Source of the DNA: an uncultured Chloroflexia bacterium
Lineage (GTDB): Bacteria > Chloroflexota > Limnocylindria > Limnocylindrales > CSP1-4
Length of the DNA: 64,000 nucleotides
Direction of reading: 5' to 3'
Assembly: GCA_963728745.1 (NCBI GenBank)
Contig: CAVSKY010000001.1
Location: forward strand, 329,972 to 393,971
Under the pieces are notes generated by a model that did no database searches, had not been told where the DNA came from, and was given only the letters and a program-made list of their open reading frames with translations. Positions within the stretch are counted from its first letter, which is position 1. Every line of letters begins with the position of its first letter. Below, one piece after another: positions 3,255 to 62,482 of the stretch. The position numbers and the translations under genes were made by a program.

Positions 3255-4742
3255 TCAGGTCCGTCCCTCGGGATCCTCGAGTCCGCCCTCCGCATGCCCA
3301 CTACAGACGAAGGCGTGGGGCGGTGTCGCGGCGTCGATGCGCTCGATGAGCCGCGCGCCGTCACGCCACTCGGCTGCGTCGATCGTGATCTGGACCGCAT
3401 CCGGGCCGTGCAGTCGCCGGGTGTCGCCGTCGTGCACGGCCGCCAGCATGTCCGCGAAGCGGATCGTCAGCCGCTCCGTCGGTGAGAAGCGCAGCGTGAC
3501 AGCGTCCTCGCCGACGACGAGCCGCGCCTTGGGTCCGCGGCCTGGCAGGTGGAACCCGCTCGGTGCGTAGGTGTCGCCGGTCGCCACAGCGGTCGACCAG
3601 TCGGGCACCTGCGTGAGGCGGTCGGGAGCCGGGTTGTCGCCGTTCCCGAAGGCCATGAGCGACTCCAGCGCCGGGCGCATCAGCTCCCGAGCGGCATCCG
3701 GCGTGACTGCCTCGCGCTGACGGATGAAGTCCTCGGGATCGCGGAGTGAATCGCCGAGCAGCACGTCGAACGCGGTCTCGAACACAAAGCCCAGTCGCGC
3801 ATCGTCGTGCTCCCAGCTGCGTCGGACAGCGGTGACCTCGTAGGCAAGCTCCTCGGGTGTCGGTCCGTCGGTCGCGAATTGATCGAGGATCTCCAGCATC
3901 AGGCCCTGGACCCGGCAGGTCTGCCGATCGTCGGCCTCGGTGGTCATCGCGACATGGGCCATGTCGCCGGCGATGCGGTCGTAGTCGAAGTCGACGTCGT
4001 AGACAGCGCCGATGTCGAAGCGAAGGCGTGACCGCATGCGGCGATGGAGGATGTTGGCGACCATGTTCGCCCCAGGCTGCCGCGGCGTCACGTACGTCAG
4101 CGCGACACCAGGCGCGTTCCACTTGACGTAGGCGGGCAGCGTGGTCTCCGCGGCGGACGTGAGAGCGGCCGCCGGGAACCGCTCGCCGTCATGCAGGTTG
4201 AGTCGGATGCCGTCCGGTGGTCCACTGAGCACGAGCACGGCGTTCGAGCGGCCGAAGCGCTCGTCCGCCCACGCCCGCACCAACCCCTCGCCCAGCCACA
4301 GGATCCCGAACTCCTCCTCGGCTGTCGCCCCGGCACCTACACCTCCGAAGCGGTAACCACGAAGCGCATCACCGAGGCCGCGGCTGTTCTCCTCGGCCTC
4401 GCGCCGCAGGATCGATCGCTCGATCAGCAGTCGACTCGTCGGGAGGTTCGCCAACGCGTGCGTCGCGTCGGCGAGGAACGTGCTGACGTCCGCACGTGAT
4501 CCGGTCACCTGGAAGATGGTCCGGAGCGTCTCGACACCGCCGTTGTGCTCGTACTCCTGGACGCCCAGTGGTGCCAGCGCGAGGTGCTCGACGAGATGGG
4601 TGATCCCGTAGCGTGCCGGGGCCTCATCGGCGCGGCCCACGCGGAAGGTCAGTGCGGCGCTGAACGGACCGGGCACGTCCAACCAGTAGGCATCGACGCC
4701 GTCGATCTGGTCATGCTGGATGATGCCGAATGCTGCCGACAC
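3255..4742 (-). CDS. M16 (insulinase/pitrilysin) family metallopeptidase-like protein
   Basis: HxxEH motif (ITHLVEHLA) near the N-terminus in a 495-aa ORF with coding-like GC3. Family assignment from the motif only. Confidence 0.55.
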   Translation of the reverse strand: MSAAFGIIQHDQIDGVDAYWLDVPGPFSAALTFRVGRADEAPARYGITHLVEHLALAPLGVQEYEHNGGVETLRTIFQVTGSRADVSTFLADATHALANLPTSRLLIERSILRREAEENSRGLGDALRGYRFGGVGAGATAEEEFGILWLGEGLVRAWADERFGRSNAVLVLSGPPDGIRLNLHDGERFPAAALTSAAETTLPAYVKWNAPGVALTYVTPRQPGANMVANILHRRMRSRLRFDIGAVYDVDFDYDRIAGDMAHVAMTTEADDRQTCRVQGLMLEILDQFATDGPTPEELAYEVTAVRRSWEHDDARLGFVFETAFDVLLGDSLRDPEDFIRQREAVTPDAARELMRPALESLMAFGNGDNPAPDRLTQVPDWSTAVATGDTYAPSGFHLPGRGPKARLVVGEDAVTLRFSPTERLTIRFADMLAAVHDGDTRRLHGPDAVQITIDAAEWRDGARLIERIDAATPPHAFVCSGHAEGGLEDPEGRT

Positions 4743-4949
4743 GGTGCCTCCCTTCGGATCGGTGCAGGCTAGCAGTCGACCTGCGCGCTCGTCTGGTGAA
4801 GCTCGCCGTCCCGCTCGGCGACCATCGACTCGTCCACGCAGCCGGGTGTATACTCAGCCCAACTGAACGGCCGCTCCGCGACGTGGGTGACCCCCACGTT
4901 TTTTTTCGGACCGGTCGTTGCTTGGCATTCGGCGTGGAAGGAGGCGATC

Positions 4950-6410
4950 GTGAGTCGAGACTTCGTGGGCGCCCTCCTTCAGCTGAACGCAGAGAAGCAG
5001 GTCTCGCGCGAGCAGCTCATCGGGGCGGTGGAGGACGGGATCCAGTCCGCCTACCGGCGCGTGGCCGGCGACGAGGACATCCACGTCCGGATCGACGCCG
5101 AATTGGGTCGCATCCGCGTGTACCGTGCGCGTCTCGTCGTCGAGGAGATCGAGGACGAGCTGACCCAGATCCTCGTCGAGGACGCCCGCAAGTTCGACGC
5201 GAACGCCAAGCCCGGTGATGTGGTCGAGACGGAGCAGCTCGACGGGGACGTCTTCGGGCGCATCGGGGCGCAGACCGCCAAGCAGATCGTCCTGCAGCGC
5301 ATCCGGGAGGTCGAGCGCGACCAGGTCTTCGACCAGTTCGCCAGCCGCGAAGGTGAGCTGATCACCGGCACGGTCAACCGTGTCGAGCCGCGCGCGATCA
5401 TCCTCGACGTCGGCAAGAACACCGAGGCGATCCTCGCAACGACCGAGCAGAGCGCGCTCGAGCACTACCGCATCGGCCAGAACGTGAAGGCGTTCGTCCT
5501 CGAGGTCCGCCGGTCCGTGCGCGGGCCACAGATCTTCGTGAGCCGCACGCACAAGGGCTTCCTGCGCCGGCTGTTCGAGCTCGAGGTGCCGGAGATCCAC
5601 AACGGCACGGTCGAGATCAAGGCCATCGCCCGTGAGGCGGGGAGTCGCTCCAAGGTCGGCGTGTCTTCGCGCCAGGACGGGCTCGATCCGGTCGGTGCGA
5701 CCGTCGGTCAGCGCGGGGCGCGCGTGCAGGCCGTCGTTGCGGAGCTCGCCGGCGAGAAGATCGACGTGATCCCATGGAATGAAGACCCGGCGCTGTTCGT
5801 GGCCAATGCGCTGAGTCCTGCCCAGGTCCTGTCGGTCGATATCGACGAGGAGAAGCGGATCGCCTCGGTGACGGTGCCCGAGCGGATGCTGTCGCTGGCG
5901 ATCGGACGCGAGGGCCAGAACGCCCGATTGGCCGCGCGCCTGACCGGCTGGCGGATCGACATCCGCAGCGACGTGTCGGTAGCGGAGGCAAAGGCCGCCG
6001 CCGAGGCGGACGTCACGCAGCCTGCTGCGGCGGAGGCGTCATCGGCCGCTGCCGGTGCGCTCCCTACTGACGCACCGTCGGACGCCGAGGCGGCGGTCAC
6101 TCCTGGAGAAGGCGCGACGGCCGAGCCGGCGCCGGCGAAGCCCAAGCGGACCACCAAGAAGTCGGCTGCGGCCCCCGCGTCCGAAGCGACCGACGGCGTC
6201 ACCGCCGAGGCACCAACAAAGCCGAAGCGGACCACCAAGAAGGCGGCTACAGCCGCGACGACAGAGGCGGCGGACAGCGTCGCCGCGGAGGCGCCGGCGA
6301 AGCCGAAGCGGGCGACGAAGAAGGCCGCGGCATCGGCACCCGACATGCCTGAAGAGCCAGCTGCCGAGACGACGCCGGCCCAGACGCCGCCCGCCGAGGT
6401 GACGTCGTAG
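4950..6410 (+). CDS. nusA: Transcription termination/antitermination factor NusA with a low-complexity basic C-terminal repeat tail
   Basis: NusA N-terminal domain, S1 and KH regions (e.g. GREGQNARLAARLTGWRIDI). GTG 4950 preceded by GGAAGGAGG RBS. Tail has 3 AEAPaKPKRtTKKaA repeats. Confidence 0.9.
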   Translation: MSRDFVGALLQLNAEKQVSREQLIGAVEDGIQSAYRRVAGDEDIHVRIDAELGRIRVYRARLVVEEIEDELTQILVEDARKFDANAKPGDVVETEQLDGDVFGRIGAQTAKQIVLQRIREVERDQVFDQFASREGELITGTVNRVEPRAIILDVGKNTEAILATTEQSALEHYRIGQNVKAFVLEVRRSVRGPQIFVSRTHKGFLRRLFELEVPEIHNGTVEIKAIAREAGSRSKVGVSSRQDGLDPVGATVGQRGARVQAVVAELAGEKIDVIPWNEDPALFVANALSPAQVLSVDIDEEKRIASVTVPERMLSLAIGREGQNARLAARLTGWRIDIRSDVSVAEAKAAAEADVTQPAAAEASSAAAGALPTDAPSDAEAAVTPGEGATAEPAPAKPKRTTKKSAAAPASEATDGVTAEAPTKPKRTTKKAATAATTEAADSVAAEAPAKPKRATKKAAASAPDMPEEPAAETTPAQTPPAEVTS

Positions 6411-6463: not shown

Positions 6464-6739
6464 CGGACATGCGTTGCGTGCCGCACGCCGCGTGCCAAAC
6501 AGGAGCTTCGCCGGATCGTGCGCACGCCGGTCGGCGATGTCACCGTCGACCCGACCGGCCGGCTGGCCGGCCGTGGCGCGTACGTCTGCCCCGATACGGA
6601 CTGCTTGACCATCGCTATCAAGAAGGGCGCCCTGAGTCGGGCGCTGGAGACACCGCTCCCGGCGACGTTCCTCGCGAGCGTCGATCCCGGAGCCACCAAC
6701 ATGCTTACCACCGAAGGAGGGCCCATTGGCCAGGAGTAG
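6464..6739 (+). CDS. ylxR: YlxR/DUF448 family RNA-binding protein (start codon unresolved)
   Basis: RTCVACRTPRAKQELRRIVRTPVGDVTVDPTGRLAGRGAYVCP matches YlxR. The conserved RTCVAC segment lies upstream of the first in-frame GTG (6518) with no canonical start in frame. Confidence 0.7.
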   Translation, partial: RTCVACRTPRAKQELRRIVRTPVGDVTVDPTGRLAGRGAYVCPDTDCLTIAIKKGALSRALETPLPATFLASVDPGATNMLTTEGGPIGQE

Positions 6740-8633
6740 GAGCGGCACCCGCGGCCGGCGCGGACCGCGCAAGCCGCCGCGTCGAGACAACGCGTTCGCC
6801 TCGCAGGTCCAGGTCGTCGATCCGCGTGAGCGGGGAGCGATCGAGCTGCCCGGCACCATCACCGTCAAGGAGCTTGCCGACCTGCTCGCGGTCAACGTCG
6901 CGGACGTCATCCGCGAGCTGATCAAGAGCGGGATCTTCGCGACGATCAACCAGCTGATCGACCGTGACACGGCGTCGCTCGTGGCGTCCGAACTCGGCTA
7001 CGAGGTCGCGGAGACCGTCGCGGCGTCGACGAACGGGACCGGTCCGGAGACCGAGACTGACGGTGCCGCGCCCGAGGCCGCCAAGGAGGTCCTCTTCGAG
7101 GAGGACGATCCGAAGCAGCTCCAGCCGCGCGCCCCGATCGTGACCGTGATGGGCCACGTCGACCACGGCAAGACCAGCCTGCTCGACGCGCTCCGCTCGA
7201 CCGAGGTGGCGGCGGGCGAGCGGGGCGGGATCACCCAGCACATCGGCGCATCCGAGGTCGTCCACGACGACAAGCGGGTCGTCTTCCTCGACACGCCCGG
7301 TCACGAGGCGTTCACGGCGATGCGTGCCCGCGGCGCCCGCGTCACGGACATCGCGATCATCGTGGTCGCGGCCGACGACGGTGTGATGCCCCAGACGCTG
7401 GAGGCCATCAGCCACGCCAAGGCGGCCAAGGTGCCGATCATCATCGCGCTCAACAAGATCGACAAGCCCGACGCCGACCCGACGAGGGTGAAGACCGAGC
7501 TGACCGAAGCCGGCATCGTCATCGAGGAGTACGGCGGCGAGGTGCCGCTCGTCCCCGTGTCTGCCAAGAGCGGTGAGGGGCTGAACGAGCTGATCGAGAT
7601 GGTGCTGCTCGTCAGCGATCTCCAGGAGCTCACGGCGAACCCGGACCGGCCGGCGATCGGCACGATCGTCGAAGCCCAGCTCGACAAGAACCGTGGCGCG
7701 GTCGCGACCGCCCTGGTCCAGACCGGCACGCTCAAGGTCGGCGACATCATCGTCGTCGGCGAGACGTTCGGACGTGTCCGGGCGCTCGAGAACGACCGCG
7801 GCAAGCGCGTCAAGCAGACCGGACCGGCCAGCGCCGTCGTGGTACTCGGCCTGTCCGAGGTGCCGGAGGCCGGCGACATCCTGCGCGTCGTCACGGACGA
7901 CAAGGCCGCCCGGTCGGCTGTCGAGGTGCGCAAGACCGAGGTCGCGAGCAAGGGTGGCGACGGCAGCGGCCGGGCGACGCTCGAGGACCTGTATCGGCAG
8001 ATCCAGGCCGGTCAGGCCAAGGAGCTGCGCATCATCCTCAAGTCCGACGTATCGGGCTCGCTCGGTGCGATCACCCACGCCCTCGAGCAGCTCGATCAGG
8101 ACGAGGTCCGGATCAACGTGCTGCACGAGGCAGCCGGCGACATCACCGACAACGACATCATGCTGGCGGCCGCATCGAACGCGATCGTGGTCGGCTTCAG
8201 CACGTCGATCACCGACACGGCCCGGCGTGCTGCCGAGGCCGAAGGGGTCGACGTCCGCCTGTACGACATCATCTACAAGCTCACCGATGACATCGACGCG
8301 GCGCTCAAGGGCCTGCTCGAGCCGGAGGTGGTCGAAGTCGTCGAGGGTCGCGCCGAGGTGCGCCAGATCATCCGCGTCGGCAAGAACACGGTCATCGCCG
8401 GTTCGTACGTCACCGACGGACGGATCGTGCGCGGTGGCGCCCGCGTCTACCGAGGCGGCAAGGTCATCGTGACCGACCGGATCGAGTCGCTGCGGCGGTT
8501 CCGGGACGACGTTCGCGAAGTGCAGACCAACTACGAGTGCGGCATCGGCCTGGCGTCCTTCACCGATCTGGAAGAGGGCGACGTGATCGAGTGCTTCACG
8601 ACCCAGACGATCAGTCGCGTCGCGACCGCGTGA
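6726..8633 (+). CDS. infB: Translation initiation factor IF-2 (short N-terminus)
   Basis: G-domain [32 protein letters not shown] 6726 follows an AGGAGG-like RBS. 635 aa. Confidence 0.92.
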
Positions 8634-8639
8634 TGCCGG

Positions 8640-9146
8640 GTGAGCCAGCGTACTGACCGCATCGACGAGCTCCTGCGGCAGGAGATCGGCAGCATCGTGA
8701 CACGTGAGGTCGCGGATCCGCGCATCGGGTTCGCGACGATCACGAAGGTCGAGACCACGCCCGACCTGCGCCACGCCAAGGTCTGGGTGAGCGTCATCGG
8801 CCAGCCGAAGGAACGCGCGCTGACCATCTCGGCGCTGAGCCGGGCGATGCCGTTCGTCCGGCGTGAGCTCGGCCGGTCGCTCCGGCTGAAGCGGATCCCG
8901 GACCTCCACGTCGAGCTCGACGACACCGCCGAGCGTGGCACGCGCGTCATGCACCTGCTCGACGAGCTGCGCGAGGGTGTGGCCCGGGACACTGATCAGC
9001 CGCTGGGCGAAACGCTGCCGACGCCGGTCGCCCGCGTCCAGCATGAGGGCGACGCGGACGAGCCACCCTCGGCAGTGATCCCGCCGAAGCCCCGCCGTCG
9101 GCGTGGCGGGCCTTCCGCGCGAACGTCGACTCGCAAGCGTCGATGA
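8640..9146 (+). CDS. rbfA: Ribosome-binding factor A with basic C-terminal extension
   Basis: RIDELLRQEIGSIVTREVADPRIGFATITKVETTPDLRHAKVWVSV matches RbfA. Confidence 0.88.
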   Translation: MSQRTDRIDELLRQEIGSIVTREVADPRIGFATITKVETTPDLRHAKVWVSVIGQPKERALTISALSRAMPFVRRELGRSLRLKRIPDLHVELDDTAERGTRVMHLLDELREGVARDTDQPLGETLPTPVARVQHEGDADEPPSAVIPPKPRRRRGGPSARTSTRKRR

Positions 9147-10162
9147 CGGTCGACCTGGCGGCCGACGTCGCCGCGATCCCGACGGTCGTCGTCGACCGGC
9201 TCAAGGGCGCCAGACGGATCCTCGCGGTGGGCCACGAGAACCCCGACGCGGACACCCTCGGTGCGACGCTGGCCATCGTCCGGATCGGCGAGGCGCTCGG
9301 CGCCACGGTCGATCCCGTCTGCACGGACCCCGTCCCGCCGCTGTACGACTTCCTCGAGGGGATCGACCGCGTTCGCACCGATCCCGATCCGGCCGTTCCG
9401 TACGACCTGCTCGTCGTCTCCGATTGCGCCACCCTGGAGCGGGTCGGCGCCGTCGGCGAACGCCACCGCGAGCTCTTCGATCGGCTCCCGAGGGTCGTCA
9501 TCGATCATCACGCGTCCAACGACGCAGTCGCGGAAGGGGACTGGATCGAGCCTGCCGCCGCGGCGACGTGCGAGATGGTCACGCTCCTCGCGCTGCGGCT
9601 CGGAATCCCGCTGGACATGGCCGACGGCGCGCTGGCGACCGCGCTGATGGCCGGCATCGTGATGGATACCGCAACGTTCGCCCATCCCAACTCGACCCCT
9701 CGGACGCTGGCGGTCTCGGCCGCACTGCTCGAGGCCGGGGCGCCGCTGTCGGACATCTCGCGGCGCCTGTATCGATCCAAGCCGGCCGCCCAGTTGCAAC
9801 TCTTCGGCCGGGTCCTCGATCGTCTGGAGGCGTTGGACGGCGGGCTCGTCGTGGTGTCCACGCTGCTCGACGCCGACCTCTCGGCGACCGGGACGCAACC
9901 GCCCCACGCCGAGGGCATCATCGACCTCCTTGCCCAGGCGGAGGTAGCCGAGGTGGCGATCCTGTTCAAGGAGGCCGGCGAGGCGACACGGATCAGCGTC
10001 CGGACCAAGCCCGGTGGGGTGGACGCGACGGCGCTGACGGGGGTGTTCGGCGGGGGCGGCCATGCGCGCGCCGCCGGTGCGACCGTCCCGCTCGCGTTGG
10101 ACAAGGCTCGCGAGGCGGTGCTGGCAGAAGCGCGGAAGGCGGCCGCGGCCGTCACCCGCTGA
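9143..10162 (+). CDS. nrnA: DHH-family phosphoesterase NrnA (nanoRNase / pAp phosphatase, CnpB-like)
   Basis: DHH motifs (GHENPDADTLG, VIDHH), DHHA1-like C-terminus (GGGHARAAGATV). Conserved position between rbfA and truB. Confidence 0.85.
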   Translation: MTVDLAADVAAIPTVVVDRLKGARRILAVGHENPDADTLGATLAIVRIGEALGATVDPVCTDPVPPLYDFLEGIDRVRTDPDPAVPYDLLVVSDCATLERVGAVGERHRELFDRLPRVVIDHHASNDAVAEGDWIEPAAAATCEMVTLLALRLGIPLDMADGALATALMAGIVMDTATFAHPNSTPRTLAVSAALLEAGAPLSDISRRLYRSKPAAQLQLFGRVLDRLEALDGGLVVVSTLLDADLSATGTQPPHAEGIIDLLAQAEVAEVAILFKEAGEATRISVRTKPGGVDATALTGVFGGGGHARAAGATVPLALDKAREAVLAEARKAAAAVTR

Positions 10163-11136
10163 TGGCTCGGTCCTCGCTCGGGCCAGGCCTCGACGGCATC
10201 CTGGTCGTCGATAAGCCGATCGGGCCGACCTCTCATGACCTCGTCGGGCTGGTGCGGCGCCTGGCCGCGACGAAGCGGGTCGGGCACGGCGGGACGCTCG
10301 ATCCGTTCGCATCCGGTGTCTTGCCGATCTTCCTCGGCCGCGCGACGCGGGTCGTCGAGTTCCACCTCGCCGATCGGAAGGCCTATCGGGCGACCATCTG
10401 CTTCGGCGCCTCGTCGACGACCGACGACCTGGAGGGTGAGATGACGCAGGCCACCGGCGCCGCGCCGAGCCGCGAGGTGATCGAGTCGGCACTACTCGCG
10501 TTCACCGGCACGATCTCGCAGCGGCCGCCCGACTTCTCCGCGATCAAGGTCGGAGGCCGGCGCGCCTATGCGGTCGCGCGCGCTGGCGGCACCGTCGAGC
10601 TGAAGGAGCGCGAGGTGACGATCGAGTCGCTGTCGCTCCTGACGTGGGATGACGGCGAGCCCGACCGGCCGATCGCGATCGTCGACGTCGTCTGCTCGGC
10701 CGGCACATACATCAGGGCGCTCGCCCGCGACCTCGGCGAGCATGTCGGGAGCGCGGCCTACCTCGGGGCGTTGCGGCGGACTGCTGCCGGCCCGTTCACC
10801 GAGGCCGATGCGATCCCGCTCGAGCGCGTGCGGGCGGCCGCGGCGCGCGGCCCGCAGCCGCTGGCCGAGCTGCTTCGACCCATCGACACCGGCCTGGATC
10901 GCTTTCCCAGCGTCGAACTCACGCCGGAGGAGGTCGCGGCAGTGGCGCGCGGGCAGTTCGTACGGCCGGCCGCCGGCGTCCCGGCCGGCCATGAGCACTA
11001 CCGCCTGCAGGGACCGGACGGCGCGCTGGTCGCGATCGCGATCCCGGCCGGGCCGGGCCGGCTTGCGCCGGACAAGGTGCTGGTCGCTGCCGAGACGCTG
11101 GCAGGCGCGACAGCGGGCTCCACGCCGGGCTGTTGA
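10162..11136 (+). CDS. truB: tRNA pseudouridine(55) synthase TruB
   Basis: ILVVDKPIGPTSHDLVGLVRR...GHGGTLDPFASGVLPIFLG catalytic motif. Start ATG overlaps the nrnA stop. Confidence 0.9.
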   Translation: MARSSLGPGLDGILVVDKPIGPTSHDLVGLVRRLAATKRVGHGGTLDPFASGVLPIFLGRATRVVEFHLADRKAYRATICFGASSTTDDLEGEMTQATGAAPSREVIESALLAFTGTISQRPPDFSAIKVGGRRAYAVARAGGTVELKEREVTIESLSLLTWDDGEPDRPIAIVDVVCSAGTYIRALARDLGEHVGSAAYLGALRRTAAGPFTEADAIPLERVRAAAARGPQPLAELLRPIDTGLDRFPSVELTPEEVAAVARGQFVRPAAGVPAGHEHYRLQGPDGALVAIAIPAGPGRLAPDKVLVAAETLAGATAGSTPGC

Positions 11137-13440: not shown

Positions 13441-13725
13441 GTGTCGGAGGAACGAGTGCCGCTCGCGCGGGAACACAAGCAGGAGACCATCACCGGATAC
13501 GCCACCAAAGATGGTGACACCGGGTCGCCGGAGGTCCAGGTCGCGCTCTTGACCGAGCGGATCAAGGACCTGACGGACCATCTCCGACGCTTTCCCAAGG
13601 ACAACCATTCGCGTCGCGGCCTCCTCAAGCTCGTCGGCCAGCGCCGCCGCCTTCTCGCGTACTTGATGAAGAAGGACAGCGCGCGCTACCGGACCGTCAT
13701 CGGACGGCTCGGACTCCGCCGCTAG
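13441..13725 (+). CDS. rpsO: 30S ribosomal protein S15
   Basis: ...[68 protein letters not shown]. Start GTG 13441 (alternative GTG 13456). Confidence 0.9.
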
Positions 13726-13797
13726 GCGTCGCAACCCTGGACCTCGAGCAGACCGCTCGGGGTCCTCGCACACACGCCGCCAGCAGCGAGGCAGGCT

Positions 13798-13813
13798 GAC
13801 CCGCCCGCGGGTC
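13798..13813 (+). promoter_or_regulatory. GC-rich perfect hairpin (GACCCGC..GCGGGTC) in the rpsO-pnp intergenic region. Candidate rpsO terminator or pnp leader processing site.
   Basis: Inverted repeat seen directly in sequence 36-50 nt upstream of the pnp start. By analogy with the E. coli pnp leader hairpin cleaved by RNase III. Confidence 0.35.
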
Positions 13814-13848
13814 GTCTTCTCCTCCACGACCAAGGAGGATCGTTTCCC

Positions 13849-16437
13849 TTGTCTCAGACGTTCGAGACACAGCTTGGTGGTCGCACGCTGACCATCGAAA
13901 CCGGCAAGCTTGCACGGCTCGCCGGCGGTTCCGTCACCGTCCGCTACGGCGACACCATGGTGCTTGGCACCGCCAACCGCTCCGAGCCCCGCCCCGGGCT
14001 CGACTTCTTCCCGCTCACGGTCGATTTCGAAGAGCGCATGTACGCCGCGGGCAAGATCCCGGGCGGCTTCATCAAGCGGGAGGCGCGTCCGTCGGAGAAC
14101 GCGATCCTCGCCGCCCGACAGACGGACCGGCCGATCCGCCCGCTTTTCCCCGAGGGCTACAAGGACGACGTCCAGCTGGTCATCACGGTCCTCTCGACCG
14201 ACCAGGAGAATCTCCCCGACGTCATCGGCACGATCGCCGCGTCGACGGCCCTGACCATCAGCGAGATCCCGTTCAACGGCCCGGTCGCTTCGGTGCGCGT
14301 CGGTCGGATCGGCGGCGAATTCGTCGTCAACCCGACGTTCAGCCAGCTCGCCGAGTCGGAGCTCGATCTGATCGTCGCCGGCACGCGCGACGCCATCATG
14401 ATGGTCGAAGCGGGCGCCAAGCTCCTGCCCGAGGACGTGATGGCCGAGGCCATCCTGTTCGGCCACCGGTCGCTGCAACCCATCGTCGACCTTCAGGAGG
14501 AGATCCAGAAGGCCTTCGGCAAGGCGAAGCGCATCCCGTACCTCGAGCCGACCACGGGTTCCGTGCTGGAGTTCGCCAGCGCGACGGACGAGAAGCGCGA
14601 GCTGGTCGTCCTCGACGTCGAGACGACGGGCACCGATCCCAAGATGTCCGACCTCCTCGAGGTCGCTGCGGTCAAGGTCAAGGGCACCGAGATCGTCGAT
14701 CGCTGGTCGACGTTCGTGAATCCCGGCCGGCCGATCGTCGGCAACCAGATGCACGGCATCACCGACAAAGACGTGCAAGGGGCACCGACCGCGCGCGAAG
14801 CCGCTGATCAGCTGCTCGCGTTCGTGGGCGACGCCAAGATCGTGGGTCACAACGTCGGCTTCGACCTGGCCTTCATCGAAGATGCCAAGGGCGACGGGTT
14901 CAGATTCGAGCCCGGCACGTACCTCGATACGCTGGTCATCGCCCGCGAAGGCTATCCGGGCGCCGAGTCATACAAGCTCGGCGACCTTGCGCGCTTCTTC
15001 GGTGTCGAGCTCAGCCAGGGCCATCGGGCGCTGCCTGACGCCGAGGCCACCGCCAACCTCCTGATCTGGTTCGCCAACGACCTGCCGGGTCGCATCTCGA
15101 CCCTGCGCACGGCGATCGCCGACGGGGTCCGCGCCCAGCGCAACGGTGGCGACACCGCCAGCCTGCTCGAGGCCGCTCGCCGCGACGCGCGGGTGAGCAA
15201 GAACCTGTTCAGCCTCGTCCAGAAGAAGACCGTCCGCCAGCTCGTCCTCGACGAGGGCATCCGCATCGACGGCCGCGGCCTGACGGACATCCGTCCGATC
15301 AGCGTCGAGGTCGGTCTCGTGCCGCGGGCCCATGGTTCCGGTTTGTTCACGCGCGGTGACACCCAGGCCCTGACGGTCGCCACGCTCGGATCGTCCTCGG
15401 ACGTCCAGCGGATCGACACGATCAGCCCGGAGACCGAGAAGCGCTATCTCCACCACTACAACTTCCCGCCGTACAGCACCGGCGAGAACAAGCCGATGCG
15501 TGGACCCAGCCGTCGCGACATCGGTCATGGCCATCTCGCGGAGCGGGCCCTCGTCCCGGTCCTCCCGGACCATGACGAGTTCCCGTACGTCATCCGGCTC
15601 GTGAGCGAGTGCGTGACGTCGAATGGTTCGACCTCGATGGCGTCGACCTGCGGATCGACCCTCGCCCTGATGGACGCCGGCGTGCCGATCAAGGCGCCGG
15701 TCGCCGGCGCCGCGATGGGTCTCATCAGCGAGCCCGACGGCCGCTTCGTCGTCCTCACCGACATCCTGGGCAAGGAGGACTCGATCGGGGACATGGACTT
15801 CAAGGTGACCGGGACGCGGGACGGCGTGACGGCCCTCCAGATGGACATCAAGGTCCAGGGCATCAGCGAGGCGATCATCCGCGATGGACTCAAGCAGGCC
15901 CTCGCGGCTCGGCTCGAGATCCTCGACAAGATGACCGCGGTGCTGCCCGAGGCCCGCGTGGAGATGAGCGACTTCGCGCCGCGCATCATCACGATCAAGA
16001 TCAACCCCGAGAAGATCCGCGACATCATCGGCAAGGGCGGATCGATGATCCGCAAGATCCAGGAAGAGACCCAGACCGAGATCAACGTCGAGGACGACGG
16101 CACCGTGGAGATCGCGGCCGTCTCGGGCGAGAACTCGCGCAAGGCGATCCAATGGATCGAGTCGCTGACTCGCGAGGTCGAGATCGGCGCGCTCTATCTC
16201 GGCAAGGTCACCCGCATCATGGGCTTCGGCGCATTCGTCGAGATCCTGCCCGGCAAGGAGGGCCTCGTCCGGATCGGCGAGCTCGCCGACTACCACGTGC
16301 CCACTGTCGAGGACGTTGTGTCCGTCGGCGATGAGGTGATGGTCGTCGTGACCGAGATCGACCGCCAGGGCCGTGTGAACCTATCGCGCAAGGCCGCGAT
16401 GCAGCGCCACCTGGCCAAGGAGCCGGTCGGGAGCTGA
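13849..16437 (+). CDS. pnp: Polyribonucleotide nucleotidyltransferase (PNPase) with an inserted DnaQ-like DEDDh 3'-5' exonuclease domain (aa ~250-412)
   Basis: RNase PH domain 1, then LVVLDVETTG (Exo I), IVGHNVGFDLAF (Exo II), GHRALPDAEA (Exo III), then RNase PH domain 2, KH (IGKGGSMIRKIQE), S1. TTG start with AAGGAGG RBS. 862 aa versus about 700-740 typical. Confidence 0.9.
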   Translation: MSQTFETQLGGRTLTIETGKLARLAGGSVTVRYGDTMVLGTANRSEPRPGLDFFPLTVDFEERMYAAGKIPGGFIKREARPSENAILAARQTDRPIRPLFPEGYKDDVQLVITVLSTDQENLPDVIGTIAASTALTISEIPFNGPVASVRVGRIGGEFVVNPTFSQLAESELDLIVAGTRDAIMMVEAGAKLLPEDVMAEAILFGHRSLQPIVDLQEEIQKAFGKAKRIPYLEPTTGSVLEFASATDEKRELVVLDVETTGTDPKMSDLLEVAAVKVKGTEIVDRWSTFVNPGRPIVGNQMHGITDKDVQGAPTAREAADQLLAFVGDAKIVGHNVGFDLAFIEDAKGDGFRFEPGTYLDTLVIAREGYPGAESYKLGDLARFFGVELSQGHRALPDAEATANLLIWFANDLPGRISTLRTAIADGVRAQRNGGDTASLLEAARRDARVSKNLFSLVQKKTVRQLVLDEGIRIDGRGLTDIRPISVEVGLVPRAHGSGLFTRGDTQALTVATLGSSSDVQRIDTISPETEKRYLHHYNFPPYSTGENKPMRGPSRRDIGHGHLAERALVPVLPDHDEFPYVIRLVSECVTSNGSTSMASTCGSTLALMDAGVPIKAPVAGAAMGLISEPDGRFVVLTDILGKEDSIGDMDFKVTGTRDGVTALQMDIKVQGISEAIIRDGLKQALAARLEILDKMTAVLPEARVEMSDFAPRIITIKINPEKIRDIIGKGGSMIRKIQEETQTEINVEDDGTVEIAAVSGENSRKAIQWIESLTREVEIGALYLGKVTRIMGFGAFVEILPGKEGLVRIGELADYHVPTVEDVVSVGDEVMVVVTEIDRQGRVNLSRKAAMQRHLAKEPVGS

Positions 16438-18837: not shown

Positions 18838-20511
18838 ATGCCCCCTATCAACCCAGACACGCCGCTCCGCATCATCCCGCTCGGCGGGGTGGGGGAGATC
18901 GGCAAGAACATGTACGTGTTCGAGTACGGCGACGACATCGTCGTGATCGACTGCGGGCTCATGTTCCCCGACGAGGAGATGTTCGGCATCGACCTCGTCA
19001 TCCCCGACGTCACCTACCTCAAGGAGAACCGCGACAAGGTCCGCGCGTTCCTGATCACCCACGCCCACGAGGACCACGTCGGCGCGCTGCCGTACGTGCT
19101 GCCGGAGTTCCCCGGCGTGCCGGTCTACGCCAGCACGCTGGCGCGTGGCCTGCTGGGCAACAAGATCAAGGAGCACAAGCTCCATAACAACCCGGTGCTC
19201 GCGCTCGAGCCGGGCGACGAGATCGATGTCGGACCATTCCACGTCATCCCGTTCCGTGTCGGCCATTCCATCCCGGACGCGATGGGGATCGCGCTGCGGA
19301 CACCGGTCGGGACCATCGTGCACACCGGCGACTTCAAGTTCGACCACACCCCGGTCGACGGCAAGCTGTCGGACTTCGCCATCCTCGCGCGGATGGGAGC
19401 CGAGGGCGTCATCTGCCTGCTCTCGGACTCCACGCGGGCAGAGAACCCGGGCTACACGCCGTCGGAGCGGACCGTTGGCGAAGCCTTCCGCGAGATCATG
19501 GAGCCCCTCGACGGCCGTGTGATCGTGGCCACCTTCGCCAGCAACATCGCCCGCATCCAGCAGGTCCTCGACGCTGCGGCCGACATGAAGCGCAGCGTGG
19601 CCGTCATCGGCCGGTCGATGGAGCAGAACTTCCGGATCGCCACCGAGCTCGGGTATCTGACCTACGAGCCATCAGCGATCATCTCGAAGGACCGCATCAA
19701 GGACCACGCCGACGGCCAGCTGGTGATCGCCACGACCGGCGCCCAGGGCGAGCCGATGGCGGGTCTTGCACGCATGGCAAATCGCGACCACCGCTTCGTC
19801 GAGATCCAGCCGGGTGACACCGTGATCGTGAGCGCTAGCCCGATCCCGGGCAACGAGGAGTACGTATCCCGGACCATCGACAACCTGTTCAAGGCCGGTG
19901 CGAACGTGTTCTACCACACGATCAAGCGCGCACACGTGTCGGGGCACGCCAGTCAGGAGGAGCTCAAGCTGATGCTCGGCCTGACGAAGCCGAAGTACTT
20001 CATCCCGATCCACGGCGAGTTCCGGATGCAGGTCCAGCACGGCCGGCTCGCGACCGAGACCGGCGTGGACCCGGCGAACGTCTTCATCATCGAGAACGGC
20101 ACACCGATCGAGTTGTTCGCCGATGGCTCGGCCCGTCGCGGCAGCCCGGTCACGGCGGGCTACGTCTTCGTCGATGGACTGTCGGTCGGCGACGTCGGCG
20201 AGGTCGTGCTGCGCGACCGGCGATCGCTCGCGAACGACGGGATCTTCATGATCGTGGTGACCGTCGACAAGCAGACCGGCTCGGTCATCGGTCGGCCGGA
20301 GATCGTGACGCGCGGGTTCGTCCACATGAATGAGCAGGACCCGCGCCTCGACGAGGCGGTCGAGCGCGTCATCGCCGCGATCGACACACCGGGTGATCAC
20401 ATCAGTGAGATCGGCCTGCTCAAGAGCCAGATCAAGGACAGCCTCTCGACGTTCCTCTACGAACAGACCAAGCGCCGGCCGATGGTCTTCCCGGTCGTGG
20501 TCGAGGTCTGA
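18838..20511 (+). CDS. rnj: Ribonuclease J (metallo-beta-lactamase / beta-CASP)
   Basis: RIIPLGGVGEIGKNMYVFEY...LITHAHEDHVGALPYVL...HVSGHASQEEL. Confidence 0.92.
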   Translation: MPPINPDTPLRIIPLGGVGEIGKNMYVFEYGDDIVVIDCGLMFPDEEMFGIDLVIPDVTYLKENRDKVRAFLITHAHEDHVGALPYVLPEFPGVPVYASTLARGLLGNKIKEHKLHNNPVLALEPGDEIDVGPFHVIPFRVGHSIPDAMGIALRTPVGTIVHTGDFKFDHTPVDGKLSDFAILARMGAEGVICLLSDSTRAENPGYTPSERTVGEAFREIMEPLDGRVIVATFASNIARIQQVLDAAADMKRSVAVIGRSMEQNFRIATELGYLTYEPSAIISKDRIKDHADGQLVIATTGAQGEPMAGLARMANRDHRFVEIQPGDTVIVSASPIPGNEEYVSRTIDNLFKAGANVFYHTIKRAHVSGHASQEELKLMLGLTKPKYFIPIHGEFRMQVQHGRLATETGVDPANVFIIENGTPIELFADGSARRGSPVTAGYVFVDGLSVGDVGEVVLRDRRSLANDGIFMIVVTVDKQTGSVIGRPEIVTRGFVHMNEQDPRLDEAVERVIAAIDTPGDHISEIGLLKSQIKDSLSTFLYEQTKRRPMVFPVVVEV

Positions 20512-20513
20512 GC

Positions 20514-22910
20514 GTGGCCAAGCCCCGTCGCTCCACCAGAGCCCGGCCGGGCCCGAGCCCGCGTCGGCGCATCTCGCGCGACCTCGCGCGGATCTTCACG
20601 CCCGAGGTCGTCCGCTCGATCGTCGGCACGGCGATGATGGCACTCGGCGCGATCACGTTGATCGCGCTGATCCTCCCCGGCCAGGGCGCCCTGACCGACT
20701 GGTGGCGCGACTCGATCGCCCCGTGGTTCGAGACCGGACGCTGGCTGCTGCCGTTCCTGCTGCTCGGCGGTGGCTGGTACGTGGCCGGCGGTCCCGGCCG
20801 GCAGCCAGGCTCCGGCTGGGGGATGACGATCGCCGGCCTGGCGATCGCCTACGTCGCCAGCCTGGGAGCCTTCGAGGTCCTCAAGATCGAGCTGTTCGAC
20901 TTCGAGCGTGGTGGCGGTCGGATCGGGCGGTTCCTCGCCGGGACGCTCGAACCGCTCCTCACCGGCCCCGGCACGTTCGTGCTCCTCGGCGCGATCGCCG
21001 GCCTGGGCCTGATGCTCGCGTTCAATCTCCAGCTGCGGGAGCTGGTGGCACCGATGACCGGGGCGGCCCGCTGGGTCGGCTCGACGACGGCCGACTCCAT
21101 GCGTCGCGTCAACGACGCCCGACCGGTCAAGCCCGCGGCGTCCGCGGCGAACGGCCGGCGAGCCCCAGCGGCGAAGCCTCCGGTCCCCGTGCCCGTCGCG
21201 ACTGGCGACGAGCTGGCGGCCGCGCGGAGCATCCTCGATGAGCCCGCTCCGCGGCTGAACCAGCCCCCGGTCAGCCAGACTGTCTGGACAGGCCCGTTGG
21301 ACGGTGGCACGACCGGTGCCCCGGTGCGTCTATCCAATGGCAACGGCTCGACACGCGTCGCGACCGCGCTGGCCACCGAGCGGCCGACTGCGCAGGAATC
21401 GCTCAACGCCATCGACTGGGTGCTGCCCGGCATCGACCTCCTCGAGCCACGCGCGGCGGGACGTGTCGGCGCCGGCGTCGATCACGAAGCGAACAAGCGG
21501 CGCATCGAAGAGAAGCTGCTCAGCTTCTCGATCCCGGCCAAGGTGGTCGCAGTCAACTCGGGCCCTGTCGTGACCCAGTACGAGGTCCGCCCCGAGCACC
21601 ACGTGAAGGTGTCGCGCATCGAGGCCCTCGCGGATGACCTGGCGATGGCCCTGGCGGCCCGCTCGATCCGGATCGAGGCGCCGATCCCGGGCAAGGACGT
21701 GGTCGGCATCGAGATCCCGAACTCCGTCAGCGAGGTGGTCGGCTTCAAGCCGCTCGTCGACGAGAGCGTGATGCTGGGCTCGACCAGCCCGCTCACGTTC
21801 GCGCTCGGGCGCGACGTGTCGGGCAAGGCGTACGCGGTCGATCTGGCCAAGATGCCGCACCTGCTCATCGCGGGTGCCACGGGGTCGGGCAAGAGCGTGT
21901 GCGTCAACGCGCTCATCACCAGCCTGCTCATGCGGGCGAGGCCGGACGAGGTCCGCCTCATCCTGGTCGATCTCAAACGCGTCGAGCTGGCGCCGTACAA
22001 CGGCCTGCCGCACCTGCTCCAGCACGTCATCGTCGAGCCCGGTGAGGCCAAGGCCGTGCTGAACTGGGCCGTGCGCGAGATGGAGGACCGCTACAAGCTG
22101 CTGGCAGCGCACGGGGTCCGCAACATCGCGGGCTTCAACGCGCGAGCCGACGTGGACGGGAACGGTGACGGCGAGCCGGGCGGGGAGCGCATGCCCTACA
22201 TCGTGCTGATCATCGACGAGCTCGCCGACCTGATCATGCGCGAAGGCCGCAAGGTCGAGGACCCGGTCGTCAAGATCGCCCAGAAGGCGCGCGCAGTGGG
22301 CATCCATCTGGTCCTCGCGACCCAACGCCCATCTGTCAACGTCGTGACCGGCCTGATCAAGGCCAACGTCCCGTCCCGGATCGCCTTCGCGATGGCCTCC
22401 AATGTCGACTCGCGGACCGTGCTGGACGCCCAGGGTGCCGAGGACCTCATCGGCCGCGGCGACATGCTCTATCAGCCGGTCGACCTACCGCGTCCGGTGC
22501 GCATGCAGGGTGTCTTCGTGAGCGACCGTGAGGTCGGCGCAGTGACACAGCACTGGCTCGAACAGACCGGCGACCGGACGTTCTACGACGAGGGCATCCT
22601 CGCCTTCGCCGATCCGGAGGACGGGGGAGGGGCCGAAGGCGGCCAGTTCGCCTGGCTACGCAAGCTCGGCGTCGACGAGATGACGGTCCCAGCCGCGGAG
22701 CTCGTGCACAGCTCACAGCGTGCCAGCACGTCGATGCTGCAGACGAAGCTCAAGCTCGGGTTCGCACGCGCCAGCCGGGTCATGGACGAGCTGGAGCGCT
22801 ACGGCATCATCGGCCCGCAGGATCCGCGCAACCCGGCCACGCCACGGCACATCTACGGACCGGACAACTGGTTCCGTTCGCAGGACGACATCGATGACCC
22901 GGGCGACTGA
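20514..22910 (+). CDS. ftsK: DNA translocase FtsK/SpoIIIE
   Basis: N-terminal TM segments, motor domain PHLLIAGATGSGKSVCVNALITSLL, C-terminal gamma wHTH. Confidence 0.92.
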   Translation: MAKPRRSTRARPGPSPRRRISRDLARIFTPEVVRSIVGTAMMALGAITLIALILPGQGALTDWWRDSIAPWFETGRWLLPFLLLGGGWYVAGGPGRQPGSGWGMTIAGLAIAYVASLGAFEVLKIELFDFERGGGRIGRFLAGTLEPLLTGPGTFVLLGAIAGLGLMLAFNLQLRELVAPMTGAARWVGSTTADSMRRVNDARPVKPAASAANGRRAPAAKPPVPVPVATGDELAAARSILDEPAPRLNQPPVSQTVWTGPLDGGTTGAPVRLSNGNGSTRVATALATERPTAQESLNAIDWVLPGIDLLEPRAAGRVGAGVDHEANKRRIEEKLLSFSIPAKVVAVNSGPVVTQYEVRPEHHVKVSRIEALADDLAMALAARSIRIEAPIPGKDVVGIEIPNSVSEVVGFKPLVDESVMLGSTSPLTFALGRDVSGKAYAVDLAKMPHLLIAGATGSGKSVCVNALITSLLMRARPDEVRLILVDLKRVELAPYNGLPHLLQHVIVEPGEAKAVLNWAVREMEDRYKLLAAHGVRNIAGFNARADVDGNGDGEPGGERMPYIVLIIDELADLIMREGRKVEDPVVKIAQKARAVGIHLVLATQRPSVNVVTGLIKANVPSRIAFAMASNVDSRTVLDAQGAEDLIGRGDMLYQPVDLPRPVRMQGVFVSDREVGAVTQHWLEQTGDRTFYDEGILAFADPEDGGGAEGGQFAWLRKLGVDEMTVPAAELVHSSQRASTSMLQTKLKLGFARASRVMDELERYGIIGPQDPRNPATPRHIYGPDNWFRSQDDIDDPGD

Positions 22911-38475: not shown

Positions 38476-40107
38476 TCAGGTGGCGTCGAGCCGCCAGGCG
38501 TCGACGGGCTCACGCTTGCCCTTGACGCGTACCGGACCGAGCTCGACGCCTCGGCGGTCTGGTTCGAGCGACTCCCACGTCGCGCGGCCGACGACGATCT
38601 GGCCGGGTTCGGCCGCCGCCATGAGCCGTGCGGCGGTGTTGATCGTGTCGCCGATCACCGCGAAGCTGCGGCGCTCGGCCGCACCGACGTCGCCGACCAC
38701 GGCTCGTCCCGTATTGACGCCGACGCGGAAGACCGGCCAGCCCGGATGGCTCGTCGCGAGTGGTCGCGCGGCATCGACGATCGACACTGCGGCGCGGGCA
38801 GCCCGTCGTGCATGGTCAGGCTGGTCGCCAGCCGCGTTGAAGATCGCCATGACGCCATCGCCGGCGAAATGCTCGATGGCGCCGCCAGTTGCATCGATCG
38901 CCGGGACGACGGCGGCCCAGAAGGCGTTCAGCATCGTCAGGACCTCGGTCGGCGGCCGGGTCTCGCTGAACGTCGTGAACCCGGCAAGGTCGGCGAAGAC
39001 GACGCTGACCTCGCGTTCCTCACCGGCCAATGCGGCACCCGTTCCTTCCCGCCGGATGCGTTCCGCGGCGACCGACGGGAGATAGGGCTGGAACGAGGCG
39101 TCCAGCCTGCGCAGCTCGTTGGCTGTGCCGGCCAGCAGCGCGACCTCGTCGGTCGTCGCACCCTCGGACCGCAACTGGGACAGCACGCCGTCGACTGATC
39201 CGCCCTTTGCGTCCGCCTCGGCGACCGCGGTGATGGCCCCGGCATACCAGCGATCGATGCGCGCCAGGGTCTGCTCCAGGTACAGCCCGCCGAAGGCTCC
39301 CGTGAGCGTGCCGCTCCGCCGGTACTCCGCCCGCGCGCCGAGCGCGATCAGCGCGAATGCCGCGAGCAGCAGGACGTGCCACTCCCACCAGCTCAGCCGC
39401 CAGTTGCGGCTCAGGACGACGGCGATCATCGCCTCGGCGAGCAGGATCAGCGCGATCGCGACCGACAACAGGATCGTGCCCCCGCGCTGTCCGTACATGC
39501 GGAACGACCGCCATGCAGCCAAGGCATACAGGGCGACCGCGCCGCCGCCGAGCACCGTCAGCAGGCCGACGCCCTCCTTCGCCGGAGGCGGGCCATCAAG
39601 GGGCGGCAGTTGCGCCAGCGACAGGAATCCCCACAGGGCCATCAGTGTCAGGAGACCGCCCAGCAGCACCGGTCGCAACCTGAGGACCGTTGGCGACCCA
39701 GGCCCCGCGATGGAGCTGACCGACGCGGCCGCGAACAGGGCGGCCAACACGAGCCCCATCGGTGTGGCGATGACGAAGCCGGCGTTCGGCTGCTCGAGCA
39801 GCACGCCGGGTGTCGCGAGCGCGTGCAGTGCGAGGAACCCGGCACTCGACATGAACGCGAGCGAGATCAGCACGAGGCGCGCGTCGCGGAACCGACCGGC
39901 CGCGACATTGGTGACGTAGGCGAGGACGACGTTGACCCCCGCCGTGACCAGCACCAGCCAGAAGTGGCTCGGGTGATGCTCCCATTCGAGGTCGAGATCC
40001 GGCCGGGCGAGCAACAACCCAAGACCGGCGAGCGGGATGACGATCGCCACGACGACCGACCATGGGATCCTGTTCACCCCGGCCCTCGTCCGGACATCCG
40101 TGGACAT
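38476..40107 (-). CDS. Membrane-anchored class III adenylate cyclase (6 TM + cyclase domain)
   Basis: Hydrophobic N-terminal half, cyclase domain FADLAGFTTFSE...IEHFAGDGVMAIFN...IGDTINTAARLM. Start ATG about 40107 chosen by aa counting. Confidence 0.8.
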   Translation of the reverse strand: MSTDVRTRAGVNRIPWSVVVAIVIPLAGLGLLLARPDLDLEWEHHPSHFWLVLVTAGVNVVLAYVTNVAAGRFRDARLVLISLAFMSSAGFLALHALATPGVLLEQPNAGFVIATPMGLVLAALFAAASVSSIAGPGSPTVLRLRPVLLGGLLTLMALWGFLSLAQLPPLDGPPPAKEGVGLLTVLGGGAVALYALAAWRSFRMYGQRGGTILLSVAIALILLAEAMIAVVLSRNWRLSWWEWHVLLLAAFALIALGARAEYRRSGTLTGAFGGLYLEQTLARIDRWYAGAITAVAEADAKGGSVDGVLSQLRSEGATTDEVALLAGTANELRRLDASFQPYLPSVAAERIRREGTGAALAGEEREVSVVFADLAGFTTFSETRPPTEVLTMLNAFWAAVVPAIDATGGAIEHFAGDGVMAIFNAAGDQPDHARRAARAAVSIVDAARPLATSHPGWPVFRVGVNTGRAVVGDVGAAERRSFAVIGDTINTAARLMAAAEPGQIVVGRATWESLEPDRRGVELGPVRVKGKREPVDAWRLDAT

Positions 40108-40222
40108 GTCCGGAGCATACGACCCGACGAACAGCGCAACGTCGTGCGATTGCGATGCGTTCGCAATCGCCGTGGATGGGTCGCTGAGTCGCGCCGACGC
40201 GAGCCTCGCGTAGACCGGTGGC

Positions 40223-40426
40223 ATGACCGACCAGAACGAACCGATCGAGCTGCCGGCACCGAAGGACGATCCAGGCAACCGGGCGACCGACGACCACGTC
40301 GCTGCGCCTGCTCCGCGCGGAACGACGCAGCCCACCGAGGGCCTCGACGAGTCCGTCGCGGACGAGCACTTGCGGTCCCCATCACAGGGCGTTCGACCGG
40401 AAACGCCGCCGCCCGACGAAGGCTAA
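40223..40426 (+). CDS. Possible small acidic, Pro-rich hypothetical protein (67 aa)
   Basis: ATG start, TAA stop, fairly high GC3 but weak RBS. Intergenic between the adenylate cyclase and the AlkZ-like gene. Confidence 0.3.
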   Translation: MTDQNEPIELPAPKDDPGNRATDDHVAAPAPRGTTQPTEGLDESVADEHLRSPSQGVRPETPPPDEG

Positions 40427-62341: not shown

Positions 62342-62482
62342 GCGTGCACCGTAGCCGCAACGTGTGGGCAACGTGTCGTATGAACGCGGACCGCCCCGTC
62401 GCATGTGGGTTGCAGCGATGTCGCATACGGCCCACGCGGCCCGCGCAAGCACGGGTCGGCCCGCCTTCGGTAGCCTTAGGCC

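Follow-up and report, generated by a model that had tools for sequence, protein, structure and literature searches.

The stretch of DNA analysed here, referred to throughout as the window, comprises 64,000 nucleotides of contig CAVSKY010000001.1 (assembly GCA_963728745.1, positions 329,972 to 393,971) from an uncultured soil Chloroflexia bacterium assigned by GTDB to the order Limnocylindrales of the class Limnocylindria. It contains a pnp gene, the gene for polynucleotide phosphorylase (PNPase), whose product carries a second exonuclease domain of the DnaQ-like DEDDh type between its two RNase PH-like cores. This gene, designated pnp::DEDDh, is an uninterrupted open reading frame (ORF) that encodes 862 amino acids (aa) and begins with a TTG start codon. 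The parts of the gene and of its product, with the helices taken from AlphaFold2 (AF2) models, are as follows:

13832..13839, forward strand: Shine-Dalgarno sequence AAGGAGGA, read from the sequence, 9 nt 5' of the pnp TTG start
13849..16437, forward strand: pnp::DEDDh gene, 862 aa plus stop (ORF, Pfam and NCBIfam matches)
13849..14469, forward strand: first RNase PH-like core, aa 1-207 (Pfam RNase_PH, and RNase_PH_C at aa 144-207)
14476..14598, forward strand: helical-domain helix 1 (aa 210-223), then a linker and, ahead of the insert, a short helix (aa 237-247) (AF2)
14599..15063, forward strand: inserted DnaQ-like DEDDh 3'-5' exonuclease domain, aa 251-405
14614..14631, forward strand: Exo I motif DVETTG (D256, E258)
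14848..14865, forward strand: Exo II motif HNVGFD (D339)
15022..15039, forward strand: Exo III motif H-x4-D (H392, D397), the 'h' signature of DEDDh
15064..15255, forward strand: rest of the PNPase helical domain, a three-helix bundle, aa 406-469 (AF2, PF03726)
15289..15948, forward strand: second, catalytic RNase PH-like core with the phosphorolytic site, aa 481-700 (Pfam RNase_PH at aa 481-613)
15988..16161, forward strand: KH domain, aa 714-771 (Pfam KH_1, E 3.7e-11)
16177..16392, forward strand: S1 domain, aa 777-848 (Pfam S1, E 1.3e-17)

The product is a complete PNPase with a complete DnaQ-like DEDDh domain inside its helical linker. Pfam recovered RNase_PH twice (E 1.5e-52), RNase_PH_C twice, KH and S1 in the 862-aa protein, and PF00929 (RNase_T) matched aa 253-405 over its full length (profile positions 1-164 of 164; score 95.3 bits, cut-off 24; E 7.7e-27). 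A first-pass annotation, made from the letters of the sequence alone, had described both RNase PH cores, KH and S1 as intact, had placed a DEDDh domain within the helical linker and had predicted that a domain search would return PF01138-type RNase_PH twice together with PF00929, KH and S1, and all of this was borne out, well beyond what chance would give. The span it had given to the exonuclease, 14596-15085, corresponds to aa 250-412 and thus to the exonuclease domain, and the three motifs it had named lie at aa 255-261 (LDVETTG), aa 334-339 (HNVGFD) and aa 391-400 (GHRALPDAEA), with D256, E258, D339, H392 and D397 all present. Among the NCBIfam models, the PNPase model TIGR03591 scored 948.6 bits (cut-off 525) and NF008805 scored 941.4 bits (cut-off 471), each match being split by the insert into two stretches. 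The model for guanosine pentaphosphate synthetase I/PNPase, TIGR02696, reached 681.6 bits, below its cut-off of 1106.75, and this assignment was rejected. The Pfam model of the PNPase helical domain, PF03726, matched weakly (25.3 bits against 24.6) and only with its profile positions 49-80, at aa 445-476.

The position of the insert could be defined closely by alignment with solved PNPases. Residues 3-224 of the query align to residues 18-239 of Staphylococcus epidermidis PNPase (5yjj), and residues 457-851 to residues 316-709, with a helical linker of about 233 residues in place of about 77 in 5yjj. The net gain is approximately 156-180 aa, the insert itself measuring about 180 aa including its lead-in linker. 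A MAFFT alignment places the break directly after G227-K228-P229 of Escherichia coli PNPase, at the end of helical-domain helix 1, and once aa 227-405 are deleted, the remaining 683 aa match a canonical PNPase in length and can be aligned with the E. coli enzyme from one end to the other. An AF2 model of aa 205-480 (predicted local distance difference test, pLDDT, 87.2; predicted template modelling score 0.82) showed, in order, a helix at aa 210-223, a linker, a helix at aa 237-247, a five-stranded alpha/beta exonuclease domain with the RNase H-like fold of the DnaQ type, and a three-helix bundle (helices 394-432, 436-447 and 451-469; pLDDT 86-96), and these elements were repeated in a model of the full-length protein. 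Since one helix precedes the insert and three follow it, the last of them being the part matched by PF03726 positions 49-80, the helical domain appears to be retained and interrupted by the insert rather than replaced. A pairwise alignment of the post-insert helices with the E. coli helical domain was too weak for a one-to-one assignment of helices. The first bundle helix is a single helix of 39 residues (394-432) that starts with the Exo III residues His392 and Asp397 and runs on into the bundle; because this continuous helix joins the C-terminal side of the nuclease to the bundle, the model suggests that the orientation of the nuclease relative to the helical bundle is fairly fixed. The full-length model was built from a shallow alignment and had a mean pLDDT of 64.9 with poorly modelled PH cores, and a Foldseek search of it against the Protein Data Bank (PDB) returned ordinary PNPases only.

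Conservation of individual residues was scored in 57 full-length orthologues derived from genomes plus the query, and in 238 full-length cluster representatives, and ratios of nonsynonymous to synonymous substitution (dN/dS) were calculated by the Nei-Gojobori method for orthologues against the window sequence. The five DEDDh residues D256, E258, D339, H392 and D397 were invariant in the genome-derived set and also in the representatives, the sole exception being a D397H substitution in one of the 238. Likewise, the phosphate- and metal-binding residues of the phosphorolytic site, R555, R556, S594, T595, S596, D644, D650 and K652, which by alignment correspond to R398, R399, S437-439, D486, D492 and K494 of the E. 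coli enzyme, were invariant in the orthologues. The dN/dS of the exonuclease domain was 0.137, compared with 0.109 for the first PH core, 0.076 for the second and 0.101 for KH-S1, while the two fastest-evolving segments were the lead-in linker (0.22) and the post-insert helices (0.33). Within the post-insert bundle the basic residues R415, R445, R448, K451, K459 and R463 were invariant. Given the invariant catalytic residues and the low dN/dS, both catalytic centres are, as far as these substitution patterns indicate, kept by purifying selection across the class.

The first-pass annotation had also proposed a survey of relatives, and the same insertion was found to recur across Limnocylindria. 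When a collection of 5.8 billion proteins was searched and the 120 best matches were examined, all 120 were at least 90% identical to the query, 855-878 aa long and carried PF00929 together with the PNPase domains; those with a name belonged to Candidatus Limnocylindrales or Chloroflexota, and the sources included NCBI, the European Nucleotide Archive (ENA) and the Joint Genome Institute (JGI). Altogether, at least 238 independent clusters at 90% identity contain the fused PNPase, with lengths of 860-878 aa, and the assemblies behind them come from NCBI, ENA, JGI and Logan. When GTDB species were scanned with one genome each, 276 species genomes matched; every one of the best 80 loci encodes the junction region (aa 201-480), with 69-95% identity, and almost all of these 80 were labelled as metagenome-assembled genomes (MAGs) of Limnocylindria or Chloroflexota. 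Two loci with a typical fused pnp, L038 (DASQFM010000042.1) and L060 (DASQIK010000062.1), are labelled Candidatus Eisenbacteria and Candidatus Dormiibacterota, respectively; their junction regions are 83% and 79% identical to the query, and mis-binning or mislabelling is likelier than an occurrence of the fusion in other phyla. The exonuclease domain alone, searched against a library of 50%-identity representatives, gave only 44 matches below 1e-30, and all ten of the matches above 50% identity whose domains were checked proved to be PNPase fusions or fragments of such fusions. Of the full-length orthologues, the most divergent is P0129, with an identity to the query of 69% overall and 57% in the exonuclease domain; its insert occupies the same position, and its cluster bears the name Candidatus Limnocylindrus sp. 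Judged from these sequences, the fusion is fixed across the class Limnocylindria, from the Limnocylindrales of soil to the freshwater Limnocylindrus.

That the segment is an assembly chimera, or that pnp is in fact split by a frameshift, is exceedingly improbable in view of this distribution. The argument in its favour is that five of the 80 related loci, all of them long-read MFD MAGs (L005, L008, L016, L042 and L071; match regions ~3401-5985), have one frameshift each in pnp. However, the frameshifts lie at differing sites (aa 236-239, 480-481, 485-486, 635 and 671) and the sequences on both sides of them are 88-99% identical, for which reason they are probably sequencing (homopolymer) indel errors; moreover, hundreds of assemblies made independently and with different technologies share exactly this architecture. 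In the window itself the pnp ORF is uninterrupted, so that the split gene named in the first-pass annotation as the outcome that would speak against the fusion was not encountered, and neither GC content nor GC skew shows a step across the insert (14.5-15.1 kb). Two of the five frameshifted loci shift near the same place, just 3' of the helical bundle (aa 480-481 and 485-486). A recent horizontal insertion was likewise rejected on the lack of a compositional step and on the position of the insert in Ca. Limnocylindrus; since that position is shared with the most divergent orthologue, the insertion is ancient.

The inserted domain is most similar to DEDDh domains of enzymes that act on DNA. In a search with the insert against PDB sequences, the best match was the exonuclease domain of Thermotoga maritima PolC (2p1j, E 9e-24), followed by a further PolC structure (9qpc, E 2.2e-22), DinG of Staphylococcus aureus (8zef, E 4.6e-19), a DnaQ (8h18, E 3.1e-13), a Cas2-DEDDh protein (8fy9, E 1.3e-10) and the epsilon subunit of E. 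coli (1j53, E 7e-10). A second comparison ranked the relatives similarly, with values of 21.5 for PolC, 19.9 for DinG, 19.6 for epsilon, 18.7 for ExoX, 18.1 for ERI1, 17.6 for RNase T and 13.6 for REXO2. No Orn, REXO2, RNase T or RNase D chain was found at E 1e-3 in the sequence search of solved structures, and an identity of the insert as Orn/REXO2 or as RNase T was rejected on model cut-offs and PDB searches. The insert was likewise rejected as a DNA polymerase III epsilon subunit (dnaQ), as it fell below the cut-offs of TIGR00573 (64.1 versus 71.5), TIGR01406 (78 versus 222.7) and NF004316 (70 versus 196). The C-terminal tail with which epsilon binds the alpha subunit is absent, because the exonuclease domain runs straight into the PNPase helical bundle. 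Outside PNPases, the closest homologues are small proteins with 46-49% identity, followed by PolC, DinG-like proteins and fusions with FAN1-HTH/VRR-NUC, GIY-YIG/UVR or BRCT domains; since the best of these relatives are only 46-49% identical, no donor lineage could be identified among the non-PNPase homologues. Three further matches in the representative library are multi-exonuclease proteins of 1045-1631 aa with an unusual architecture: the number of DnaQ-like exonuclease domains in tandem is three in P0128, which also carries GIY-YIG and UVR motifs, three in P0145 and two in P0146. In PolC a domain of the same type is itself an insertion, located inside the PHP domain, which gives this domain type a precedent as an insertable module. 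The hosts of the PolC/DinG-type domains (2p1j, 9qpc, 8zef/9ii8) are a DNA polymerase or a helicase, whereas the host in Limnocylindria is an RNA phosphorylase.

The mixed character of the protein is reflected in its database names. Orthologues P0012-P0120 and P0312-P0410 are annotated in conflicting ways, NCBI naming them polyribonucleotide nucleotidyltransferase and JGI entering around half of them as 'DNA polymerase III epsilon subunit family exonuclease'. The JGI name is a domain-level name only.

The surroundings of pnp::DEDDh in the window include the following genes and elements:

4887-6407: nusA
6726-8630: infB
9143-10159, forward strand: NrnA-like DHH/DHHA1 gene between infB and truB, 4 kb 5' of pnp
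13456..13725, forward strand: rpsO (ribosomal protein S15), directly 5' of pnp (Pfam Ribosomal_S15, E 3e-34)
13739..13765, forward strand: GC-rich 11-bp hairpin in the rpsO-pnp spacer, directly after the rpsO stop
18838-20508, forward strand: RNase J (TIGR00649, 606.6 bits)
20514-22907, forward strand: FtsK

The truB-rpsO-pnp context identifies the gene as the housekeeping, single-copy-type pnp and not an accessory paralogue. The rpsO gene was read from the translation as 89 aa from a GTG at about 13456, and the RNA of the segment from its end into the start of pnp (13723-13860) folds with a minimum free energy of -59.5 kcal/mol (z = -2.94 versus shuffled sequences). By analogy with the E. coli rpsO-pnp leader, the hairpin at 13739-13765 may be an rpsO terminator or a processing site of the pnp leader. 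Rfam gave no matches in the whole window, including this hairpin, and a scan for sigma-70 promoters and terminators around pnp yielded nothing informative. On the 3' side pnp is followed by asd, RNase J and ftsK, and a second major RNA-decay nuclease is thus encoded near pnp, two genes downstream after asd. The best NCBIfam match of the DHH/DHHA1 protein is the bifunctional oligoribonuclease/pAp phosphatase NrnA, at 73.9 bits against an equivalog cut-off of 350. A mechanically called ORF of 677 aa at 9103-11133 (forward strand) has TruB domains only at aa 385-598, while towards its N terminus it overlaps, in a different frame, the DHH gene, and the true truB start must lie much further downstream than 9103. 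Long overlapping ORFs on both strands occur across the window and are typical high-GC artefacts.

Elsewhere in the window, two adjacent ORFs on the reverse strand (58980-61130 and 60632-63316; 716 and 894 aa) have weak dynamin-N/GTPase matches and may, on this similarity, encode a bacterial dynamin-like pair; because the coordinates of the two overlap by about 500 bp, the 716-aa ORF has probably been extended too far at its upstream start. A 619-aa protein encoded at 38476-40335 on the reverse strand has a C-terminal adenylate/guanylate cyclase catalytic domain (E 4.7e-23) preceded by about 440 residues without a Pfam match.

The location of the insert suggests where a second activity would operate in the assembled enzyme. 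In published structures the helical domain of PNPase lies on the face of the torus opposite S1/KH, where it forms part of a pore through which the phosphorolytic site can be reached by a second route (Nurmohamed et al., 2009, PMC2723993), and this pore is thought to control the entry and exit of phosphate and nucleoside diphosphates (NDPs; PMC2723993; reviewed in PMC6181284). Human PNPase, which releases oligonucleotides, has a helical-domain lysine that touches the RNA close to the active site (PMC12685370). We lean, if only slightly, towards the interpretation that the Limnocylindria protein is a bifunctional phosphorolytic and hydrolytic 3'-5' exonuclease, the hydrolytic activity of the insert being inferred from its conserved residues. 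Since the published structures put the helical domain opposite S1/KH, the trimer would carry three Mg2+-dependent hydrolytic 3'-5' exonuclease sites on its 'back' face, beside the side pores, and because the Exo III helix continues as bundle helix 1, these sites would be held fairly rigidly. The ring would degrade RNA by phosphorolysis, and the DEDDh site would provide a second, phosphate-independent and irreversible trimming of 3' ends with release of nucleoside monophosphates. Its substrates would be nucleic acids that PNPase already handles, most probably RNA; candidates are the short oligonucleotides left behind where the phosphorolytic site can go no further, and 3' ends present when phosphate is scarce or NDP levels are high and phosphorolysis has stalled or reversed.

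Several observations weigh against a bifunctional RNA exonuclease of this kind. The nearest relatives of the insert in sequence and structure, namely the PolC proofreader, DinG, epsilon, ExoX, and FAN1-like and GIY-YIG fusions, are DNA-side enzymes, so that an RNA substrate cannot be assumed; DinG of Bacillus subtilis prefers single-stranded DNA, breaks down the RNA strand in RNA:DNA hybrids and cuts free single-stranded RNA only with Mn2+ (PMC12525004). In addition, the inter-domain geometry of the full-length AF2 model is unreliable at its mean pLDDT of 64.9, and the NrnA-like gene 4 kb upstream suggests that the genome may already have a nanoRNase, a weak argument, and such redundancy is common. 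The character of these relatives favours a possible, though on the whole unlikely, explanation in which the insert acts on DNA or on RNA:DNA hybrids and not on free RNA; the PNPase body would bring the PolC/DinG-type nuclease to its targets, where it would resect DNA 3' ends or remove the RNA strand of R-loops. This explanation would fit with a part played by PNPase of other organisms in DNA repair and recombination and in R-loop homeostasis, a link to recombination and repair having been reported (PMC5379764). However, the host protein has kept every feature needed for handling RNA (the rpsO-pnp operon, an intact phosphorolytic site, KH and S1), such DEDDh domains often accept either sugar, and the neighbourhood, with asd, RNase J and ftsK 3' of pnp, offers no link to repair.

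Alternatively, the insert might be a folded and conserved domain that is no longer a nuclease and serves in the binding of nucleotides or 3' ends, in gating of the side pore, or as a structural element or docking site for a partner. The proposed role of the canonical helical domain in regulating the access of phosphate and NDP (PMC6181284, PMC2723993) could accommodate such a function, and the insert does evolve somewhat faster than the PNPase cores (mean identity 84% versus 91-95%). Nevertheless we consider this improbable, as all five residues that activate metal or water are invariant in the 238 representatives, bar one representative at one site, with a dN/dS of 0.14 for the domain, and residues of this kind are normally lost in pseudo-nucleases.

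Comparison with known systems underlines how ordinary the components are. The canonical PNPases (E. coli Pnp and Streptomyces antibioticus GPSI/PNPase; 3cdi, 3gcm, 1e3h, 5yjj) have the cores, KH and S1, the catalytic residues and the rpsO-pnp operon in common with the Limnocylindria protein, as well as a helical linker that the latter appears to retain in interrupted form, and the solved PNPases are 35-39% identical to the query; however, their chains do not exceed 784 aa and none has a comparable DEDDh insert, in agreement with the first-pass statement that canonical PNPases have only a small all-alpha domain at this position. A phosphorolytic enzyme and a hydrolytic nuclease of the DEDD family are also brought together where REXO2 clears nanoRNA from the mitochondrial PNPase-SUV3 degradosome (PMC7261184) and where RNase D is a component beside PNPase in the Caulobacter degradosome (PMC4245959), but in both cases they are separate proteins. 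The first-pass label 'degradosome-type' for the Limnocylindria protein is unsupported, no RNase E or other degradosome partner having been looked at.

The eukaryotic exosome consists of an RNase PH-like ring with an S1/KH cap, the hydrolytic nuclease Rrp44 on the opposite face and the DEDD-family nuclease Rrp6. The likeness thus extends to an RNase PH-type ring, an S1/KH cap and a hydrolytic 3'-5' nuclease, with one exosome nuclease belonging to the DEDD superfamily and one lying on the face opposite the cap. In contrast to the Limnocylindria PNPase, in which the phosphorolytic site is kept and the nuclease is covalently attached, the ring of the exosome is catalytically dead and its nucleases are separate subunits; moreover, Rrp6 is a DEDDy nuclease of the RNase D type whereas the insert is DEDDh. 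The resemblance is best regarded as convergent and not as family membership. As a more speculative and rather doubtful extension, the Limnocylindria PNPase might be a bacterial single-polypeptide analogue of the exosome holoenzyme, in which RNA would be caught by S1/KH and threaded into the ring, and its 3' end or the remaining oligonucleotide would reach the DEDDh site, across from the cap, by way of the channel or the helical-domain side pore. The hand-off would be set by phosphate and NDP levels or by substrate length, and the resulting switchable phosphorolytic and hydrolytic decay would possibly be an adaptation to phosphate-poor soils and lakes.

PNPase is among the best-studied enzymes of RNA decay, and its domain plan is generally taken not to vary between bacteria and mitochondria. 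In full-text literature searches neither a PNPase-DEDD/DnaQ fusion nor a Limnocylindria PNPase was found to be described, consistent with the first-pass remark that no characterised PNPase of this architecture is known. Both domains are ordinary, but their combination is not; the sequences are already public under inconsistent names, whereas the architecture they encode has been neither recognised nor characterised. A practical consequence is that orthologues of one protein leave the annotation pipelines either as PNPase or, in conflict with this, as 'DNA pol III epsilon family exonuclease'.

For the biology of these bacteria, the fusion means that an abundant soil and freshwater class has a second exonuclease, of predicted hydrolytic type, permanently built into its PNPase, at the very domain that is believed to control access to the phosphorolytic site. 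Should RNA be the substrate of both sites, the protein would represent a natural experiment in the coupling of reversible, energy-conserving phosphorolysis with irreversible hydrolysis, and a convergent parallel to the exosome with Rrp6 and Rrp44. If the insert acts instead on DNA or R-loops, the debated role of PNPase in DNA repair would gain a dedicated active site.

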